From Methanomassiliicoccales archaeon (lineage in GTDB: Archaea > Thermoplasmatota > Thermoplasmata > Methanomassiliicoccales > UBA472), in NCBI GenBank assembly GCA_038740345.1, contig JAVYMA010000003.1, forward strand, positions 1,470 to 65,469: a stretch of 64,000 nucleotides of DNA. Direction: 5' to 3'. The notes below the pieces were generated by a model. The model did not search any database. It was not told where the DNA came from and was given only the letters and a program-made list of their open reading frames with translations. Of this stretch, positions 29,017-61,686 are shown one piece after another (within the stretch, counting starts at the first letter, position 1; every line of letters begins with the position of its first letter). The translations under genes were made by a program, and so were the position numbers.

Positions 29017-29835
29017 TCATTTGCTCTCATCTTTCAATAGACGGGTGGTGATCTCCACCAAAGGATGGTGCGAACCATCTATGATCTTAACATCATCAAG
29101 ACTGTTTAGGCCGTGCTCGCGAGCCGTTTTTTCCATGCCCAGTTCGATGTCCCTATCGGGCTGTAATACAACGGCAGAAAATTGTTTGACGCCCATCTGC
29201 TTGGCCGCCAAGACCCTATGATGACCGTCCACCAGGAGATAATGGTCATTCTTCTGCACCACGATAATCGGTTCCACCAGTCCGCGTCTTATCTCCTCTT
29301 GGCGACCTAGAAGTTCATCTGCGAAGACTTCCCACTGCGTGGGCTTTAATTGCTCTATCGGTATCACTCGTCGTTTGACGTTGATGTTTATCCCGTGTTT
29401 CTTTTCGAGGAAGGTCTTGACCATAAGGACCTTATTAGGGGTGGCTCGCTCGATGTGAGATCTTACGATATCCAAATTCGAGATTATGCCTATGAGCATA
29501 CCTTTCTCGTTAACTACAGGAACGTTCCTTAGCCCATATCTAAATAATACCCTAGCGGCGTCGTCCAAATCCATATCGGGAGTAACTGAATAAGTTCCCC
29601 GTCGAATGATATTCCTTATTTTGGCATCAGGCTTGCTGATATTCCGTAGAAGCTCCTTGGCCGTCACGAACCCAATCAGCTTGCCCTTATCAGTTACAGG
29701 TAGACCATGAAATTCAGTATTGATCAATTTTTCTATAGCTTGCTCTACGGTAAAGTCACCAGGTATGGAGATGACATCTCTGATCATGTAATCTTCGACT
29801 TTGAGCTTTCTTTCTTCCATTCTATCGTATCTCAA
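29017..29835 (-). CDS. CBS-pair domain fused to a ParB/sulfiredoxin-like domain
   Basis: Two CBS repeats (DYMIRDVISI...HGLPVTD; ...LRNVPVVNEKGMLIGIIS), then IPIEQLKPTQ ... LLVDGHHRVLAAKQMG, typical of the ParB N-terminal-like fold. Confidence 0.65.
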   Translation of the reverse strand: MRYDRMEERKLKVEDYMIRDVISIPGDFTVEQAIEKLINTEFHGLPVTDKGKLIGFVTAKELLRNISKPDAKIRNIIRRGTYSVTPDMDLDDAARVLFRYGLRNVPVVNEKGMLIGIISNLDIVRSHIERATPNKVLMVKTFLEKKHGININVKRRVIPIEQLKPTQWEVFADELLGRQEEIRRGLVEPIIVVQKNDHYLLVDGHHRVLAAKQMGVKQFSAVVLQPDRDIELGMEKTAREHGLNSLDDVKIIDGSHHPLVEITTRLLKDESK

Positions 29836-29984: not shown

Positions 29985-30060
29985 GCCCTGGTAGTGTAGC
30001 GGCCTATCATGAAGCCCTGTCGAGGCTTCGACTCGGGTTCAAATCCCGACCAGGGCGCCA
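29985..30060 (+). tRNA. tRNA-Asp (anticodon GTC), CCA encoded
   Basis: GCCCTGG...CCAGGGC acceptor stem, anticodon stem-loop AAGCC-CTGTCGA-GGCTT, T-arm TCGGG-TTCAAAT-CCCGA, 3' GCCA. Confidence 0.9.
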
Positions 30061-30199
30061 TCCTTTTCCGTTAGAAAATTAGATGCTGAGTTGTGTTTGA
30101 TTCGGTAAACATTATAGTCGAGATAATAGTATTAGTTTTTATAATACAATATTAGGAAATGAATTCATGTAAATCATAGATTGTATCAAAGGTGAGCAT

Positions 30200-30835
30200 A
30201 TGGTCGCAATTCTAGGGACCTTGGGCTTCCGTCCGCAGTCTCTCATCCCCACTATTAAATCCACGCCCGGAGTAGATCATGTCGTGGTCTTCATCAGCCC
30301 AGCGAAGAAGTCAAAAGAAGCAGTCGCTGCGGTGGTGGATTATTGCCGCACTATGCAGATAAAATGCGATGTGGTCGAACTTGACGATGCTTTCGACCTC
30401 ATGATGGTGGCAGAGAAGGTTCAAGATCAAGTTTTAGCCTTGCGAAGCGCAGGTGAAGATATAGCCGTATTTAACATCGCGGGTGGAACTAGATTGATGA
30501 GTGGAGCAGCCTTGCTGGTATGTATCTTCGAAGGTCTGAACGCTGTATATGTTCATGACGATACATACGAAGAGATAGCCCTTCCTTTTCTGCACATGAA
30601 ATACTCGAACGCCCTTACCCCAGTAGAAAAGGATATTCTTAAGCAGATTCTGAAGCATGAAGATGGCATATCCCAGATAGAATTAGCCAAAGAAATGGGC
30701 CTGCACAAGGCCACTGTGAATCACCACATAAAATTGTTATTAGAAAAAGGAGCTGTGGAGCTGATAACTAAGCCTGACGATAGGAGAAAGAAAATAGTGC
30801 GCGTGCAGGAATCTATGCGCCTTTTATTAAGGTGA
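30200..30835 (+). CDS. Csa3-like regulator: CARF-type Rossmann domain + winged HTH (paralog 1)
   Basis: N-terminus MVAILGTLGF, central NIAGGTRLM (CARF G-G-T motif), C-terminal MarR-like wHTH ISQIELAKEMGLHKATVNHHIKLLLEKGAV. The architecture matches Sulfolobus Csa3 as I recall it. ATG lies 4 nt after GGTGA. Confidence 0.65.
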   Translation: MVAILGTLGFRPQSLIPTIKSTPGVDHVVVFISPAKKSKEAVAAVVDYCRTMQIKCDVVELDDAFDLMMVAEKVQDQVLALRSAGEDIAVFNIAGGTRLMSGAALLVCIFEGLNAVYVHDDTYEEIALPFLHMKYSNALTPVEKDILKQILKHEDGISQIELAKEMGLHKATVNHHIKLLLEKGAVELITKPDDRRKKIVRVQESMRLLLR

Positions 30836-30840
30836 CCATT

Positions 30841-31464
30841 TTGCGTGTACTCATCACCACATTTGGTTATGACCATTCTAAAATAATACAAGCCATGAAG
30901 GCGGTCCCGCATGACGCCTTAATAGTCGTCACCAGCGAAGAGAATTCGCGCACAGAACAATACAAAAAAATATTGGAAGCAGCAAACATGGCCAATGTGC
31001 CAGTGGAGTTGCTTTTAGTGGACAAATTCGATTTCCTTTCTACCTTCCATAGAATTGTTGATTGTATATCAACTCATAGGAAACGAGGAGATAAGGTCGC
31101 ATTGAATGTTAGCGGAGGGACAAGAATATTAGCTGATGCTGCTCTCATCGCTGCCTTCAATACTGGTGTAGAATGTTATCATATAGCCGATACCGTGCGC
31201 CGGCTCCCTGTTCTACATGGCGTTACAATCATGGAACCGTTGACACGTGAGCAGAAATCTATTTTACTAAACCTTGAAGATGGAATAGAGGTTAAGGAGG
31301 CTATAAAACTCGCCAAAGACGATCCGAGGTTCATGGACGAGCTATTGAAATTAAAGAAAGCCGGCGTCGTGGAGACTAGAAGTGATTCTGAAAAGGTGCG
31401 CTTATTCCTCACCGACAAAGGACAAAGAGTTTTAAGATCTATGAGGAAAAAACGAGATTCCTGA
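30841..31464 (+). CDS. Csa3-like CARF + wHTH protein (divergent paralog 2)
   Basis: MRVLITTFGY, NVSGGTRIL and a C-terminal wHTH-like segment. I prefer TTG 30841 (5 nt after GGTGA), which aligns residue-for-residue with the paralog 1 N-terminus. The ORF-track start GTG 30832 overlaps the paralog 1 stop (GTGA). Confidence 0.6.
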   Translation: MRVLITTFGYDHSKIIQAMKAVPHDALIVVTSEENSRTEQYKKILEAANMANVPVELLLVDKFDFLSTFHRIVDCISTHRKRGDKVALNVSGGTRILADAALIAAFNTGVECYHIADTVRRLPVLHGVTIMEPLTREQKSILLNLEDGIEVKEAIKLAKDDPRFMDELLKLKKAGVVETRSDSEKVRLFLTDKGQRVLRSMRKKRDS

Positions 31465-31466
31465 TG

Positions 31467-32558
31467 TCACTTGATCAGCGGAATGATTTCAGCCTTAATT
31501 CTTGAAATCGTTCTTTCCACCTCTTCAGCGACACCTTCTGGCTCAGGAGGAGATTCTTTGTCATGCAAAGCATCCCAAGCCGCAGATTCCTTTGGATATA
31601 CACCTGAGATGGTGCAAAACATTATCGCCCAGCAACGTGGAACGGTTTCGATGTTGTAGCCCCCTCCCCCAACCACTAAGTAATGTCCATTACAAAGATC
31701 GTGCGCTGCCTTATGCGTGACATTTGCTATTTCCTCATAAGCATGTGTGGTTAGCCCTAATCCAACTAATGGATCCAGGAAATGCGCATCCACCCCGAAC
31801 TGATGGATGATGAAATCTGGCCGATACTCCTTCAGTGCGGTAATAACGACCTCATTATAGGCCTTCAAATACGTCCTGTCACCCGTCCTGAACGGCAGCG
31901 GTACATTTATGGCGTAGCCTTTTCCATAGCCTTCTCCTATCTCCCTCGTCCCCCCGCTGCCTGGGAAAAATCCCAGGCTAAAGTGGTGCAAGGAAATGGT
32001 CAGCACCTTCTCACTATAGAAAACGGATTGTGTTCCATCGCCATGATGTCCATCGATATCGATTATAGCTATTCGCTCCTTTTTGAACCGCCTTTGAAGT
32101 GCCCTGACCGCCACGGCGATGTCATTGAAAACACAGAATCCTGAGGAGCATTCGGAGCGCGCGTGATGCAGACCGCCTGCAGGATTGAAGGCATGAAGGA
32201 ATTTGCCATTCATGATTCCCTCTGCTCCGTCTATAGTAGCGCCTACCGCCGCGAGCGCACCTTCTAACAAGGTTTTGGTGGCGGGCGTATCTCCTCTGTC
32301 TAGGAGACCATATCCAGACTCACAGCGGTTGCGCACAAAGTCTATATGTTCTTTGCTATGCACCATGCACAGGTCCTCAATAGAGGCTGGATATGTCTTA
32401 TATACGATCGCTTTATCACCAAAGATTCCCAATTTTTCCAACAATTCCAAGGTCGCCTTTTCCCTATACGGCTGGAAGGGATGGTTCTCCCCGAAGTAGT
32501 ACTTCAGGAAGTCTTCATTGTAGAGGAATGCGCAATGATCGCCGGTCACGAAATCCAC
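31467..32558 (-). CDS. histone-deacetylase-family amidohydrolase (AcuC/HDAC-like)
   Basis: GGLHHARSECSSGFCVFND and IDIDGHHGDGTQ metal/catalytic motifs. Confidence 0.85.
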   Translation of the reverse strand: MDFVTGDHCAFLYNEDFLKYYFGENHPFQPYREKATLELLEKLGIFGDKAIVYKTYPASIEDLCMVHSKEHIDFVRNRCESGYGLLDRGDTPATKTLLEGALAAVGATIDGAEGIMNGKFLHAFNPAGGLHHARSECSSGFCVFNDIAVAVRALQRRFKKERIAIIDIDGHHGDGTQSVFYSEKVLTISLHHFSLGFFPGSGGTREIGEGYGKGYAINVPLPFRTGDRTYLKAYNEVVITALKEYRPDFIIHQFGVDAHFLDPLVGLGLTTHAYEEIANVTHKAAHDLCNGHYLVVGGGGYNIETVPRCWAIMFCTISGVYPKESAAWDALHDKESPPEPEGVAEEVERTISRIKAEIIPLIK

Positions 32559-32611
32559 CGAATGAAAGGGAGATATAAATCAGCTCTCTGAATTTCAAAA
32601 TATCGCTAACG

Positions 32612-32941
32612 TCATTCGACGAAGTGGATGCACAAAGGCCCTTTCTCCCTCACTAAACTCTTAGACATCATGCCAAGTTCTATAAAGGCACAGTTAAAGA
32701 TAGCAGTTGGAACAAGACAAGTGGTAGTTAGACCTGCCTTTCCAGCAAGTTCGAGAATTCGATTTCCTTCCCATTCGGTCAAATCCTTGACGTCAGCGTG
32801 TTGCAGCATATCCGCATAAGTAGCGACGTTAGGACAGTCAGACCTGATCTCGATGGAAACTCTATCCTCACCTATCCTTTTCGCAAGAACTTCGGTATAG
32901 TGACTGCAAATCGCTGCTTCCACAACAGCTTTGGATGGCAT
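32612..32941 (-). CDS. hypothetical Cys-rich protein (109 aa)
   Basis: An ORF with 5 Cys (SDCPNV, TTCLVP, FNCAF, LCIHF), lying between the ABC ATPase gene and the HDAC-like gene on the same strand. No family recognised. Confidence 0.45.
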   Translation of the reverse strand: MPSKAVVEAAICSHYTEVLAKRIGEDRVSIEIRSDCPNVATYADMLQHADVKDLTEWEGNRILELAGKAGLTTTCLVPTAIFNCAFIELGMMSKSLVREKGPLCIHFVE

Positions 32942-37658: not shown

Positions 37659-38087
37659 GTGAGGTTGAAAATTTTTACCGACGCCGGTTCTCGAGGAAAT
37701 CCGGGCCCTTCTGCCTTCGCAGTGGTCATATGCTCGGAAACTGGTGAGAAGATTTTAGAGTTCTCCAGGTTCCTGGGGGAACGAACAAATAACGAAGCTG
37801 AATATCACGGCCTACTAGCTGCGCTGGAAGAGGCAAAAAAAATGGGCGCAGATGAAGTGGAAATAATTTCAGATAGCGAGTTAATGATCAAGCAGTTAAC
37901 CGGTAAATATCGCATAAAGTCTGAAAATCTTCTGCCATTGGCAAAAAGGGCCAAAGATTTGATGAGTGAATTCAAGAGTGTCGAACTATCACATTCTCGC
38001 CGTGACCACCCTCTAATCCGAAAAGCTGACCGTTTGGTAAACGAAGAGCTGGATGCGATGCAGTTCGCCCATCGTCTCAGAAGCTGA
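37659..38087 (+). CDS. rnhA: ribonuclease HI (type 1 RNase H)
   Basis: FTDAGSRGNPGPSA, NNEAEYHGLLAALE and SDSELMIKQL motifs. Confidence 0.8.
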   Translation: MRLKIFTDAGSRGNPGPSAFAVVICSETGEKILEFSRFLGERTNNEAEYHGLLAALEEAKKMGADEVEIISDSELMIKQLTGKYRIKSENLLPLAKRAKDLMSEFKSVELSHSRRDHPLIRKADRLVNEELDAMQFAHRLRS

Positions 38088-58975: not shown

Positions 58976-59356
58976 GAATTTTTTTATTAAATTTTGATTA
59001 CATTATATTTATTTTTATTTTTTAATTAAGAAAAATATTTTTATTTAAAATGTCTGAAATATTTATATGATGGGAAAATATAAAACAATTTTTTCGTAAA
59101 TATTCAAATCTCAAACAACATTTATAAAATATAAAAAAATATTTATTTTAATTCAATTATAAGTATTAATTGAAAATGGATTCTAAATATTTTGATAAAA
59201 ATTATTACAATATTTGATTTATATATTAAAAAAACAATTTAGCCCGCAAAAATAAATTGTATAAGAAAAACATTATTAGAAAAGCATACTGTTGAGAAAG
59301 TCGTATTGAATCGAGTGCTCTCCAAGTTTAAATGCTTAAAATCATAAACTAAGTGG

Positions 59357-60208
59357 ATGATTTGGGGTATGTATATGAAACCATATTTTTCAATTCCGGG
59401 ATTCGAACTTTATCTTCAAGATTGTCTTGTTGCTCTAGACGAACTTGAGCCAGAATCGGTAGATATGATTTTTGCAGATCCACCATATAACCTTTCCAAT
59501 GGTGGTTTCACTTGTCATTCTGGAAAACGTGCTCCCGTCAACAAAGGAGAATGGGATATTAGTAGAGGTATTGAGAATGATTTTGAATTTCATAAACAAT
59601 GGATATCAAAGTGTAAACGTTTACTGAAAGAAAATGCCACTATTTGGATCAGTGGAACATATCACTCAATTTATGCCTGCGGGTTCGCTCTTCAATTATG
59701 TGGTTACCAAATATTGAATGATATATGCTGGTTCAAACCAAACGCGGCTCCAAATATCAGTACAAGATATTTTACGGCGAGCCACGAGACATTGATTTGG
59801 GCCAAAAAAAGTGCCGATTCCAAACATTATTTCAATTATGAATTAATGAAAAATGGCGTGTGGAAAAAAGACCCCCTAAAGAAACCTGGCAAGCAAATGA
59901 GATCAGTATGGAGTATACCAACTCCATCGCCAAGTGAAAAAAAATTGGGAAAACACCCCACCCAAAAACCAATTGAATTATTAATGAGGATAATTTTGTC
60001 TAGTACAAAGGAAGGAGATACGATCCTTGATCCATTTACTGGAAGTTCAACAACTGGTCTTGTTGCTTATGCGACTAATAGAAAATTCATAGGAATTGAT
60101 AATAATAAAGAATATTTAGATTTATCAATTAAAAGACTTAACGCACTTCAGGATGACATGAGTAAAGTAAAAAAATTTATCACGTGCAAGTTAGGAAATT
60201 TTGAGTGA
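59357..60208 (+). CDS. beta-class exocyclic-amino (N6A/N4C) DNA methyltransferase
   Basis: FADPPYNL (motif IV) is N-terminal and ILDPFTGSSTTG (motif I) C-terminal, with a CcrM/M.HinfI-like middle (WISGTYHSIY...NDICWFKPNAAPN...SHETLIWAKK). The start could be ATG 59375. Confidence 0.85.
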   Translation: MIWGMYMKPYFSIPGFELYLQDCLVALDELEPESVDMIFADPPYNLSNGGFTCHSGKRAPVNKGEWDISRGIENDFEFHKQWISKCKRLLKENATIWISGTYHSIYACGFALQLCGYQILNDICWFKPNAAPNISTRYFTASHETLIWAKKSADSKHYFNYELMKNGVWKKDPLKKPGKQMRSVWSIPTPSPSEKKLGKHPTQKPIELLMRIILSSTKEGDTILDPFTGSSTTGLVAYATNRKFIGIDNNKEYLDLSIKRLNALQDDMSKVKKFITCKLGNFE

Positions 60209-60220
60209 GGGAGGGTTAAT

Positions 60221-61429
60221 TTGTCAGAATTTATAAAATTTTTAGAGAGAATTGCCAACGTTTGCGGAATAAAATTAACTCAAGAACATTTCATGGGAAT
60301 TGACGAGTACCACGTTGCATCTAAAATATTACATGAAATAAACTCATTTTTTTATCAAAAAAAACAGTCAATTCCGGGTGACTATATATCCGAATTTCAT
60401 ATATATTGGAAGAATAACCATAAAAAAATTCTAAGGCCGACTGTAGGACCAAATGGGGAATGTTTAGAGGTCGCTAAAATATTTGAGGGTATATATTCAA
60501 AAACAAGAGTGAAAGTGCATGTAGATACATTGGATTTAACAGCAGAAGAAATAGCAAATGTTCGTTTTTTTACTTCGATTCAAGATTTTAATATCGATAT
60601 CCATGCAAGGGGTAATCCTTTTGAATTATACAAACGAATCCCAGAAAGTTTCTCCCCAAAAAAAATCGTAAATAACGAACTTCTGATTGATACGTTTCTA
60701 AATATGATTGGTGCAGATTCACAAAGAGATAAAAGAAAAAAATGGATGGAAAATGCTGCGAGACTTTTAGTTGAACGTTATGATGGATCCGCGCTCAATA
60801 TTTGTAATGTACATAATGGTGATGTTTTAGAGATTATAAAGGCACTCACTGAAAACGAAAGAAATGGTCTTTCTATCAAAAAGGCCCATATGCTTCTTCG
60901 GGATATGGCTGATCTAGGTATTTGGTCATATTCTAAAAATTCAGACAAACTTGATGTAATGAGTGATAAAAATACCATGAGGGTAGCATTAAGAACCGGC
61001 ATCGTTCAATTTAGTATACCCTTACTGGCAAGTTATCTAGATGTTTATTGCTACCAATACTCTTTAGTCGATCAAGTCTGCAGAGATGCTTGGAGAAAAG
61101 TATGGGAAGATTGGGGTAGTTTGCCAAATAACCATAGACCCCCAACGCCAGCATCAATGGATTATCTGATATATAGATTGGGTAAAATTGTTTGTAAAAA
61201 TCAGAAAAGGATATGTTTTCCATCACCACCTGCGGACTTCAAGCAAATTGAAAGTATGTTCCCTCAAGATAGATTGGCATTCGACAAAGATGGATATTGC
61301 ATCTTCAATAGACTTTGTAAACCTGAAAGAAAGATATTGAATCCACCAAATAGCATATCAATTAAAGGAATGACTGGATGGGATCGAGGTAAGACAAACG
61401 AGGGTGGAGGTGGAGGAATTTCTTCTTAA
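60221..61429 (+). CDS. endonuclease III-like HhH-GPD protein with split 4-Cys Fe-S loop and a long novel N-terminal extension (402 aa)
   Basis: TTG start 5 nt after GGGAGGG. Contains NGLSIKKAHMLLRDM (HhH with Lys), DVMSDKNTMRVALRTG (Asp region), CKNQKRIC...CIFNRLC (C-x6-C ... C-x5-C). See the first finding. Confidence 0.6.
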   Translation: MSEFIKFLERIANVCGIKLTQEHFMGIDEYHVASKILHEINSFFYQKKQSIPGDYISEFHIYWKNNHKKILRPTVGPNGECLEVAKIFEGIYSKTRVKVHVDTLDLTAEEIANVRFFTSIQDFNIDIHARGNPFELYKRIPESFSPKKIVNNELLIDTFLNMIGADSQRDKRKKWMENAARLLVERYDGSALNICNVHNGDVLEIIKALTENERNGLSIKKAHMLLRDMADLGIWSYSKNSDKLDVMSDKNTMRVALRTGIVQFSIPLLASYLDVYCYQYSLVDQVCRDAWRKVWEDWGSLPNNHRPPTPASMDYLIYRLGKIVCKNQKRICFPSPPADFKQIESMFPQDRLAFDKDGYCIFNRLCKPERKILNPPNSISIKGMTGWDRGKTNEGGGGGISS

Positions 61430-61613
61430 TTACAAAATAAAATATTTTTAAATTAATTTTAAAATTTGTTAATCAATTTCATTATTTTTTATAACTTAGA
61501 ATAATATCTATGCAAATCCCATTGAAATATTTATCAACTTTTCATCTTTAGAGAGAATAATTATAAATAAAGCTTTGTTTTAAAAATATTATTTGCTGGA
61601 TATTATTAAGGAG

Positions 61614-61686
61614 TGCTCCCGTCGGGATTTGAACCCGAGTCGAAGCCTCGAGAGGGCTTCATGATTGGCCACTACACTACGGGAGC
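61614..61686 (-). tRNA. tRNA-Glu (anticodon CTC), CCA not encoded
   Basis: The reverse complement GCTCCCGTAGTGTAGTGGCCAATCATGAAGCCCTCTCGAGGCTTCGACTCGGGTTCAAATCCCGACGGGAGCA has acceptor GCTCCCG/CGGGAGC and anticodon loop CTCTCGA. Confidence 0.88.

Follow-up and report, generated by a model that had tools for sequence, protein, structure and literature searches.

A conserved, translationally coupled pair of Csa3-like CARF regulator genes with an operator-like element at its own promoter in Methanomassiliicoccales and other Thermoplasmata

The stretch of DNA analyzed here (the window) comprises 64 kb of a 96,787-bp contig from a Methanomassiliicoccales metagenome-assembled genome (MAG), and our subject is a pair of adjacent genes within it, ORF-A and ORF-B, whose products are referred to as A and B. 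A first-pass annotation of the open reading frames (ORFs) had described two neighboring frames of about 210 amino acids (aa) with a common architecture, the second start overlapping or immediately following the first stop, within or behind a GGTGA. Both descriptions were confirmed: ORF-A encodes 211 aa and ORF-B encodes 210 or 207 aa, depending on whether GTG 30832 or TTG 30841 serves as its start. The two genes and their junction are laid out as follows.

30200-30835, forward strand: ORF-A, 211 aa, ATG start; predicted Csa3-like CARF plus MarR-type winged helix-turn-helix (wHTH) regulator
30841-31464 from TTG (207 aa), or 30832-31464 from GTG (210 aa), forward strand: ORF-B, predicted Csa3-like/DUF6293-type CARF plus wHTH paralog
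30831-30843, forward strand: coupling junction; Shine-Dalgarno-like GGTGA holding the A stop codon TGA (30833-30835), the overlapping GTG 30832, and TTG 30841

The stop codon of A lies inside AGGTGA; a start at GTG 30832 would overlap ORF-A by 4 nucleotides (nt), and the in-frame TTG 30841 begins 5 nt past the stop. We infer that TTG 30841 is the likelier B start, because it agrees with the family consensus N terminus MRxLxSTFG and with the NCBI gene call of 207 aa. With the TTG as the start, GGTGA would stand at Shine-Dalgarno distance from it.

To place the two proteins in a family, we combined profile searches with structure prediction. BLASTP aligned A and B with 27% identity over 166 aa (E = 3e-10), so that the low identity between the paralogs noted in the first pass is nevertheless beyond chance. 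Both proteins matched Pfam Csa3_N above its gathering cut-off of 27 bits (A, 35.7 bits, 1e-8; B, 38.0 bits, 2e-9), and HFX_2341_N (PF19810; cut-off, 30) was passed by B (57.1 bits, 3e-15) and not by A (22.6 bits). In the C-terminal region of A, MarR_2, MarR, and HTH_24 matched at aa 139 to 197, MarR_2 with 40.7 bits against a cut-off of 27 (2.6e-10); the wHTH region of B gave only subthreshold Pfam matches (F-93_WHD, 19.5 versus 28; DUF6293_C [PF22665], 12.2 versus 27). NCBI names A a MarR family protein and B a "DUF6293 family protein." PADLOC assigned A to PDLC01853 "CARF3--CARF" over its full length (1.4e-83) and B to PDLC01856 "CARF3--CARF" (3.9e-37), and its Csa3 and CasR models also matched both proteins. 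Against NCBIfam TIGR01884 (cas_HTH; trusted cut-off, 60.2), A scored 54.0 and B 44.2 bits; by these scores, the two are relatives, not members, of the curated TIGR01884 Csa3 subfamily.

The AlphaFold2 (AF2) models reached a predicted local distance difference test score of 93.5 and a predicted template modeling score of 0.86 for A, and 90.0 and 0.63, respectively, for B. The best PDB matches of both models in Foldseek were Csa3 structures of S. solfataricus, with and without cyclic tetra-adenylate (cA4) (6wxq, 2wte, and 6w11; E = 1e-10 for A and 7e-10 for B), followed by ring nucleases with CARF and wHTH domains, Cam1, Cami1, Can2, and Csm6. The wHTH of B has the predicted secondary structure helix-helix-helix-strand-strand-helix, and its Foldseek alignment to Csa3 spans the full length. 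A MarR-family identity of A was considered and rejected: only the wHTH at aa 139 to 197 fits MarR profiles and structures (about 75 columns), the N-terminal 130 aa are CARF, and the dimerization helices that flank the wHTH N- and C-terminally as a MarR hallmark are not found in A. Thus, on profile matches and predicted folds, A and B are Csa3-like CARF plus wHTH paralogs. This is the layout that the first-pass annotation had recognized and proposed to check by profile hidden Markov models and structure prediction, and both lines of evidence (Csa3_N, the PADLOC CARF3 profiles, and the top-ranking Csa3 structures) support the CARF fold for both proteins. The search for homologs of A returned 372 proteins. 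A word-index search with B alone returned only B itself, and the B-family alignment was made from translations of related loci. The B family is small, with 254 clusters at 50% identity among 1.84 billion representatives, and most of its members carry no Pfam annotation. None of these 254 representatives is a fused A-B ("Rosetta stone") protein, the longer matches being Csm6-like CARF-HEPN proteins or unrelated.

To collect related loci, we carried out a pattern scan with the A-family alignment in one genome per GTDB species, which yielded 64 loci, all from Thermoplasmata/Methanomassiliicoccales MAGs. Three complete chromosomes (OY970070.1, OY968769.1, and OW818644.1) carry the pair. A B-like ORF directly follows A in 63 of the 64, and the remaining contig stops 4 nt past A. 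In 41 of the 55 cleanly readable loci, the A stop codon is overlapped by the B start codon (NTGA or TGATG), and the gap is at most 11 nt in the other 14; the start codons in these loci are our own assignments. The translational coupling of the pair, as first proposed, is therefore real and conserved across related loci. In Methanomassiliicoccales, the gene order is phosphoenolpyruvate (PEP) synthase, a CBS domain protein, tRNA-Asp, A, B, an HDAC-like gene, and DUF6951, and this synteny with housekeeping genes fits vertical inheritance. The neighbors in other Thermoplasmata are HAD, MBL, GPN-GTPase, and MTTB genes. The housekeeping neighbors differ between clades, and the A-B pair alone is the conserved unit.

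A few loci depart from this picture. The locus most similar to that of the window (L001; A, 75% identical; B, 52% identical) lacks ATG, GTG, and TTG codons in the B frame around the A stop (positions 1905-1915 of L001); its first aligned codon is CTG, which is either a noncanonical start or a sequence error. In four long-read MFD MAG assemblies (L004, L060, L062, and L063), A and/or B is frameshifted or fused. Since the PEP synthase and HDAC-like neighbors are also broken in L035, L060, L062, and L063, we regard the frameshifts as assembly indel errors and not as marks of pseudogenes.

ORF-A is the slowly evolving member of the pair. Across loci, its product is 44 to 75% identical to the window protein, apart from 32% in L063, a poor assembly. 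Its domains and motifs are located as follows.

30200-30583, forward strand: CARF domain of A (aa 1-128)
30215-30229, forward strand: pocket motif 1, G6-T7-L8-G9-F10
30470-30493, forward strand: pocket motif 2, F91-N-I-A-G-G-T-R98 (NIAGGTR at 30473-30493)
30602-30832, forward strand: wHTH domain of A (aa 135-211)
30704-30727, forward strand: predicted recognition helix of A, H169-K-A-T-V-N-H-H176

Residue conservation in A was counted over 53 database homologs. In motif 1, G6, L8, and G9 are invariant, T7 is present in 52 of 53 sequences, and only F, Y, W, or H occurs at position 10. In motif 2, F91, N92, G95, G96, and T97 are invariant, I93 and A94 vary very little, and every sequence has R or K at position 98. 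Further invariant residues are Y117, H119, and D120 of the Y117-V-H-D120 segment (V118 nearly invariant) and E125. Within the recognition helix, H169, K170, A171, T172, N174, H175, and H176 do not vary among the database homologs, and the exceptions are three locus-derived sequences (L054, L056, and L057), which carry T169 and Y175. In Csa3a, which has been linked to an 18-bp palindrome, cA4 is bound across the dimer axis by Gly9-Phe10 together with Gly96 and Arg98 (PMC8699464). The pocket positions of A match these ligand-holding residues by residue number (G9-F10, G96, and R98), in the shared patterns T-h-G-aromatic (motif 1) and h-x2-G-h-R (motif 2). In contrast, the tail of Csa3 motif 1 (Glu-X4-Arg) is unmatched in A (R11-P12...P17), motif 1 continuing with R-P in A and with (N/D)-E in Csa3. 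The motifs quoted in the first pass, MVAILGTLGF and (L)RVLITTFGY as well as NIAGGTR and NVSGGTR, are present, and the cores of both Csa3 pocket motifs are kept.

B evolves faster, with 22 to 52% identity across loci. Numbered from the GTG, its features are as follows.

30844-31206, forward strand: CARF domain of B (aa 5-125)
30859-30873, forward strand: motif 1 of B, T10-F-G-Y-D14
31105-31125, forward strand: motif 2 of B, N92-V-S-G-G-T-R98
31246-31458, forward strand: C-terminal wHTH-like domain of B (aa 139-209), with a nonbasic "recognition" helix, RFMDELLKLKK, in this genome

T10, G95, G96, and G112 are invariant in B, and its most conserved stretch is helix alpha4 (D102-A-A-x-x-A-A108), in which D102, A103, A104, A107, and A108 are each conserved in at least 91% of sequences. 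Position 13, the equivalent of the adenine-stacking F10 of Csa3, is variable. K/R98 is retained in 43 of 56 sequences; at least four clades have V, S, W, P, or H in its place. The Glu-X4-Arg tail of motif 1 has only a loose match. Most lineages have a basic "recognition" helix (RxxRxL[KR]), but its sequence is not conserved, and the window protein has D, L, and K there (DELLKLK). Clade-wise covariation of the A and B pockets was also considered as evidence and was judged uninformative, each pattern amounting to a single phylogenetic event.

To identify conserved promoter elements, the 200 nt upstream of A were aligned across loci. Two direct half-sites, [A/C/G]GTAT[T/C/G]A, lie 20 bp apart at about -72 and -52 from the A ATG and enclose a half-site in inverted orientation, T(a)AT(A)c. 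The overall layout is GTATnA-N7-TnATAC with a third GTATnA immediately behind it and a TATA-like A/T run after that. The copy in the window has the following coordinates.

30129-30154, forward strand: operator-like element GTATTAGTTTTTATAATACAATATTA, 26 bp; palindrome GTATTA-N7-TAATAC (30129-30147), 1 nt, and a third, slightly degenerate half-site, ATATTA (30149-30154)

The spacer in the window, TTTTTATAATA, is A/T rich and TATA-box-like. With up to one mismatch allowed, the palindrome had 61 matches in the 12.2 kb upstream of A and 7 in the remaining 901 kb of the loci, an enrichment of about 640-fold, and in 55 of 61 loci its distance from the A start is the same. In the 64-kb window, the A-B promoter element is the sole exact match to GTATNA-N7-TNATAC and the sole match to GTATNA-N14-RTATNA. 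A search with the operator pattern for a local regulon was negative, with no second site in the window and no enrichment in the other 901 kb of the loci; nor was a second conserved operator type seen near the locus. The direct half-sites change in concert, to GTTTGA/GTTTGA in L024 and L043 and to GGTTAG/GGTTAG in L059, and the clade with the helix changes H169T and H175Y (L054, L056, and L057) carries GGTYnA-type sites. Because the helix of A is invariant and because helix and half-sites covary in part, A is most likely the reader of this operator. A near-symmetric palindrome argues for two identical A helices per site, which an A2 (or A2B2) arrangement would fit better than a simple A:B dimer.

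Many non-Methanomassiliicoccales loci (L016, L033, L044, L021, L014, and L049) have an extra palindrome, GTAT[C/G]A-N7-TGATAC, at about -140 to -118, which suggests two-site control by looping or cooperativity in these lineages. The extra palindrome is absent in the lineage of the window, where a tRNA-Asp gene fills that space (29985-30060, same strand, 139 nt upstream of ORF-A). This tRNA-Asp was the sole Rfam match, and no riboswitch or other RNA element was found in the 139-nt leader region upstream of A. Bacterial promoter and terminator scans have no information value for archaeal DNA.

We also searched the surroundings of the pair for CRISPR-Cas. Tandem Repeats Finder and a custom spaced-repeat scan revealed no CRISPR array in the window, and the spaced-repeat scan found none within 10 kb of 68 related loci (window plus loci, 1.06 Mb). 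No cas gene or cyclase was detected by Pfam scans among the 54 window ORFs, which encode aminoacyl-tRNA synthetases, GatA/B, glutamine synthetase, pyruvate:ferredoxin oxidoreductase, PEP synthase, topoisomerase VI, an ABC transporter, and other housekeeping proteins of this kind, plus one N6/N4 DNA methyltransferase; no cas genes were seen in four annotated related contexts. The repeat scans and the ORF survey agree with the initial reading that the 64 kb hold no CRISPR repeats, cas genes, or cyclase. In Methanomassiliicoccales, CRISPR-Cas is described as non-vertically inherited and as belonging to the flexible gene pool (PMC4153887, PMC10804542). The cultured members of the order that have been described carry types I-C, I-A/B, and V, with no type III reported (PMC4153887).

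We propose, with moderate confidence, that A-B is an old, vertically inherited two-gene operon encoding autoregulated, ligand-gated regulators of the CARF3 clade that are not linked to a CRISPR locus, with A as the DNA binder and B as its partner. The recognition helix HKATVNHH of A would read the GTATnA half-sites; since these lie at the core promoter of the operon itself, the pair would be autoregulated, and further targets of A presumably exist elsewhere. The pocket of A (T-L-G-aromatic, FNIAGGT-R/K, YVHD, and E125) would bind a small, roughly two-fold-symmetric nucleotide ligand, cA4-like or other, and the wHTH domains would shift upon ligand binding, as they do in Csa3. B, synthesized alongside A, would either be the other subunit in a hetero-oligomer whose pocket is asymmetric or modulate A by titrating it. 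That B works with A and not as a second canonical sensor is suggested by the relaxed constraint on its base-stacking residue, on its pocket K/R (in several clades), and on its DNA-reading helix. A physical partnership of A and B is put forward tentatively. In favor of a heterodimer are the strict co-occurrence and coupling of the genes and the drift of the stacking position and K/R98 in B compared to the near-invariant pocket of A. The strictest form of this idea, an obligate A:B or A2B2 heteromer whose composite, asymmetric pocket combines the conserved aromatic and basic residues of A with a degenerate half from B and receives a non-CRISPR endogenous nucleotide signal, is in our estimate rather unlikely. 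The signal in that case might be, for example, a linear or nonsymmetric oligonucleotide, cyclic di-AMP (c-di-AMP), or a related messenger. If true, such a heteromer would serve an archaeal order as a housekeeping module for CARF signaling and would be the first CARF transcription factor of heteromeric type.

Several points weigh against the proposed operon of a DNA binder and its partner. The pair is clade restricted and not universal in Thermoplasmata, as it was found in 64 species representatives. In L059, the half-sites are changed while the helix is unchanged, which weakens the assignment of the operator to A, and the near-symmetric palindrome also fits an A2 homodimer without B. Furthermore, B may be a competent independent sensor and DNA binder in most lineages, because T10, G95-G96, K98, and a basic helix (RxxRxLK) are kept there. 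The adjacent CARF paralogs Csm6 and Csm6' of S. thermophilus each form homodimers. Finally, a distal type III system may exist elsewhere in the genome, and among Methanomassiliicoccales, the environmental ones generally have more cas genes (PMC10804542).

Three other explanations were weighed. The strongest of them, which we consider unlikely, takes A and B as independent homodimeric Csa3-like regulators that are merely co-transcribed, each with its own (or a shared) ligand and its own promoters, like Csa3a/Csa3b of Sulfolobales or Csm6/Csm6'. The kept pocket residues and basic helix of B and the near-symmetric operator would suit such homodimers, as would the presence of a Csm6' homodimer structure (8pe3) among the fold matches of B. 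All characterized CARF-wHTH proteins are, moreover, homodimeric, namely, Csa3 (2wte and 6wxq; PMC8699464) and MM_0565 (PMC7465815). However, merely co-transcribed regulators would not readily account for a pair that is unsplit in 63 of 64 loci and keeps its stop/start overlap across deep divergence. It also speaks against independence that B is retained despite the loss of K/R98 in at least four clades and an unconserved adenine-stacking position, and that its reading helix is unconserved with no second conserved operator type seen near the locus.

An explanation that we regard as improbable is that A and B belong to the ordinary CRISPR-associated Csa3 regulators and act at a distance, with a type III (Cas10) system elsewhere making cA4 and the pair switching cas, CRISPR, or repair genes. 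The pocket motifs do match the cA4-binding ones of Csa3a (PMC8699464), the PADLOC Csa3 and CasR profiles match both proteins, overexpressed HFX_2341 represses cas genes though it is encoded far away (PMC11434293), and cas genes are frequent in environmental Methanomassiliicoccales (PMC10804542). Set against this are the lack of an array within 10 kb of 68 loci and of cas genes in the four annotated contexts and the window, as well as an operator seen only at the pair's own promoter in the window and related loci. The syntenic housekeeping setting of the pair, consistent with vertical descent, likewise contrasts with the nonvertical CRISPR-Cas of the order (PMC4153887, PMC10804542), whose cultured members have no reported type III system (PMC4153887). 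The remaining explanation, that B is a Crn1-like ring nuclease (CARF plus wHTH, as in Sso1393 and Sis0811) which degrades the cyclic nucleotide sensed by A and thereby resets the switch, was rejected because of its motifs, and we regard it as very improbable. A sensor with a signal-degrading enzyme would be a logical design, and Sis0811, Sso1393 (both CARF plus wHTH), and Sso2081 are among the fold or sequence matches of both proteins. Nonetheless, the Gly9-Thr10-Ser11 of Crn1, with its important Ser11 (PMC10018336), is absent; T10-F11-G12 in B and T7-L8-G9 in A show the Csa3 pattern T-h-G-aromatic, Csa3 outranks the ring nucleases by E value for both proteins, and the basic pocket residue of B is dispensable in several clades.

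Among known systems, Csa3/Csa3a of Saccharolobus solfataricus (Sso1445; 2WTE, 6W11, and 6WXQ) is the best structural match and shares with A and B the two-domain layout and the length of about 210 aa. Csa3a and the pair also have in common a palindromic promoter element of about 18 to 19 bp (PMC8699464). In contrast, identity to Csa3 is only 16 to 19%, and both A and B fall below the TIGR01884 cut-off. Csa3 lies in or next to type I-A cas loci as a single gene encoding a homodimer, whereas here two divergent paralogs form a coupled pair near no cas gene or array in the sequence examined. A Csa3-like global repressor of Haloferax mediterranei, HFX_2341 (DUF6293), is inherited vertically, is not CRISPR linked, and also occurs in CRISPR-less species; c-di-AMP or cAMP is suggested by its authors as a potential ligand (PMC11434293). 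Its situation as a Csa3-like core-genome regulator without CRISPR linkage is the one that we infer for the A-B pair, and B resembles it in passing PF19810 and in its NCBI DUF6293 name. Unlike B, however, HFX_2341 is 308 aa long and, according to its description, a single gene without a partner paralog, and B stays below the DUF6293_C cut-off; A differs from HFX_2341 in belonging to another CARF3 subfamily (PDLC01853) and in its MarR-type wHTH. MM_0565 of Methanosarcina mazei is, like the pair, a euryarchaeal CARF-wHTH regulator; it binds its own promoter as a homodimer, and its effects reach beyond cas genes (PMC7465815). Unlike the pair, this homodimer adjoins a type I-B CRISPR locus and has no paired paralog.

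The Crn1 ring nucleases with a wHTH (Sso1393 and Sis0811) resemble A and B in combining CARF and wHTH domains and gave the highest TM-scores for A (0.64 to 0.68), but they are enzymes of about 270 aa associated with cas loci. Crn1/Sso2081 is characterized by a phosphate-positioning G-T-S with Ser11 and by G-R-K in the beta4-alpha4 loop (PMC10018336). Compared by motif position and not by superposition, A has G-T-L-G and G-G-T-R and B has T-T-F-G and G-G-T-R at these places, with no Ser after the Thr. Diverged CARF units also occur together in other settings. Can1 has two CARF domains in one chain, and asymmetric pockets are known in such single-chain pseudo-dimers. Can1 and Csm6/Csm6' resemble the pair in placing two diverged CARF units together or side by side but are, unlike it, nucleases inside type III loci.

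The novelty implied by the first-pass annotation did not hold up in full breadth, for two reasons. The A and B subfamilies are already catalogued as separate CARF3 profiles of a published CARF census, as judged by PADLOC model names, and a CRISPR-independent Csa3-like regulator is not new because HFX_2341 has been described (PMC11434293). No coupled two-gene CARF-wHTH pair was found in the literature searched, and the same search did not turn up the strictly conserved coupled pairing of divergent subfamilies, the asymmetric pocket decay, or the conserved three-half-site operator. CARF domains have been studied almost only as receivers of cyclic oligoadenylates from type III CRISPR systems. A long-kept core-genome CARF-wHTH pair, together with HFX_2341, suggests that Csa3-like sensors also serve general regulation. 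With its 26-bp operator, one frozen pocket and reading helix, and one drifting pocket, the pair offers a test system for asking whether CARF pockets form from two different subunits and which non-CRISPR ligand is read.

Several neighboring features of the pair deserve mention. Upstream of A-B and divergent from it, a 272-aa protein is encoded at 29017-29835 on the reverse strand; two CBS domains are its only Pfam match, and they are followed by a C-terminal region with a DGHHR motif reminiscent of ParB/sulfiredoxin-like domains. This CBS gene is syntenic in all Methanomassiliicoccales loci and 70 to 92% conserved. Downstream, an HDAC-family deacetylase gene (31467-32941, reverse strand) converges with ORF-B, the two stop codons lying 2 nt apart, and is followed by the gene of a DUF6951 protein. 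The HDAC-like and DUF6951 genes are syntenic with the pair in Methanomassiliicoccales and absent from other Thermoplasmata loci, and they probably stand outside the functional unit of the pair. In four loci of nonmethanogen Thermoplasmata (L065 to L068), an MBL-fold gene matching Pfam Anti-Pycsar_Apyc1 lies a few genes (about 5 kb) downstream of A-B, on the far side of two MTTB genes (e.g., 15682-16455 in L065). This family is named for a cyclic-nucleotide phosphodiesterase, so that the gene product is a possible ligand-turnover enzyme, although its proximity to the pair could be coincidence.

Farther away in the window, a stand-alone RNase H-like ORF (RVT_3/RNase_H, 142 aa) lies at 37659-38087 between an ABC-transporter cluster and the histidyl-tRNA synthetase gene. 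The sole defense-like feature in the window is found at 59357-61429 and consists of an N6/N4 DNA methyltransferase gene (PF01555, 5.6e-59; PADLOC MTase_II, 1e-96) and, 12 nt on, a 402-aa ORF without a Pfam match. Short A/T-rich tandem repeats flank this locus on both sides (59106-59146 and 61438-61479), and a tRNA-Glu gene adjoins it (61613-61686). The methyltransferase and the 402-aa ORF may form a type II restriction-modification pair, and the flanking repeats and the tRNA gene suggest that the locus may be a small inserted island.

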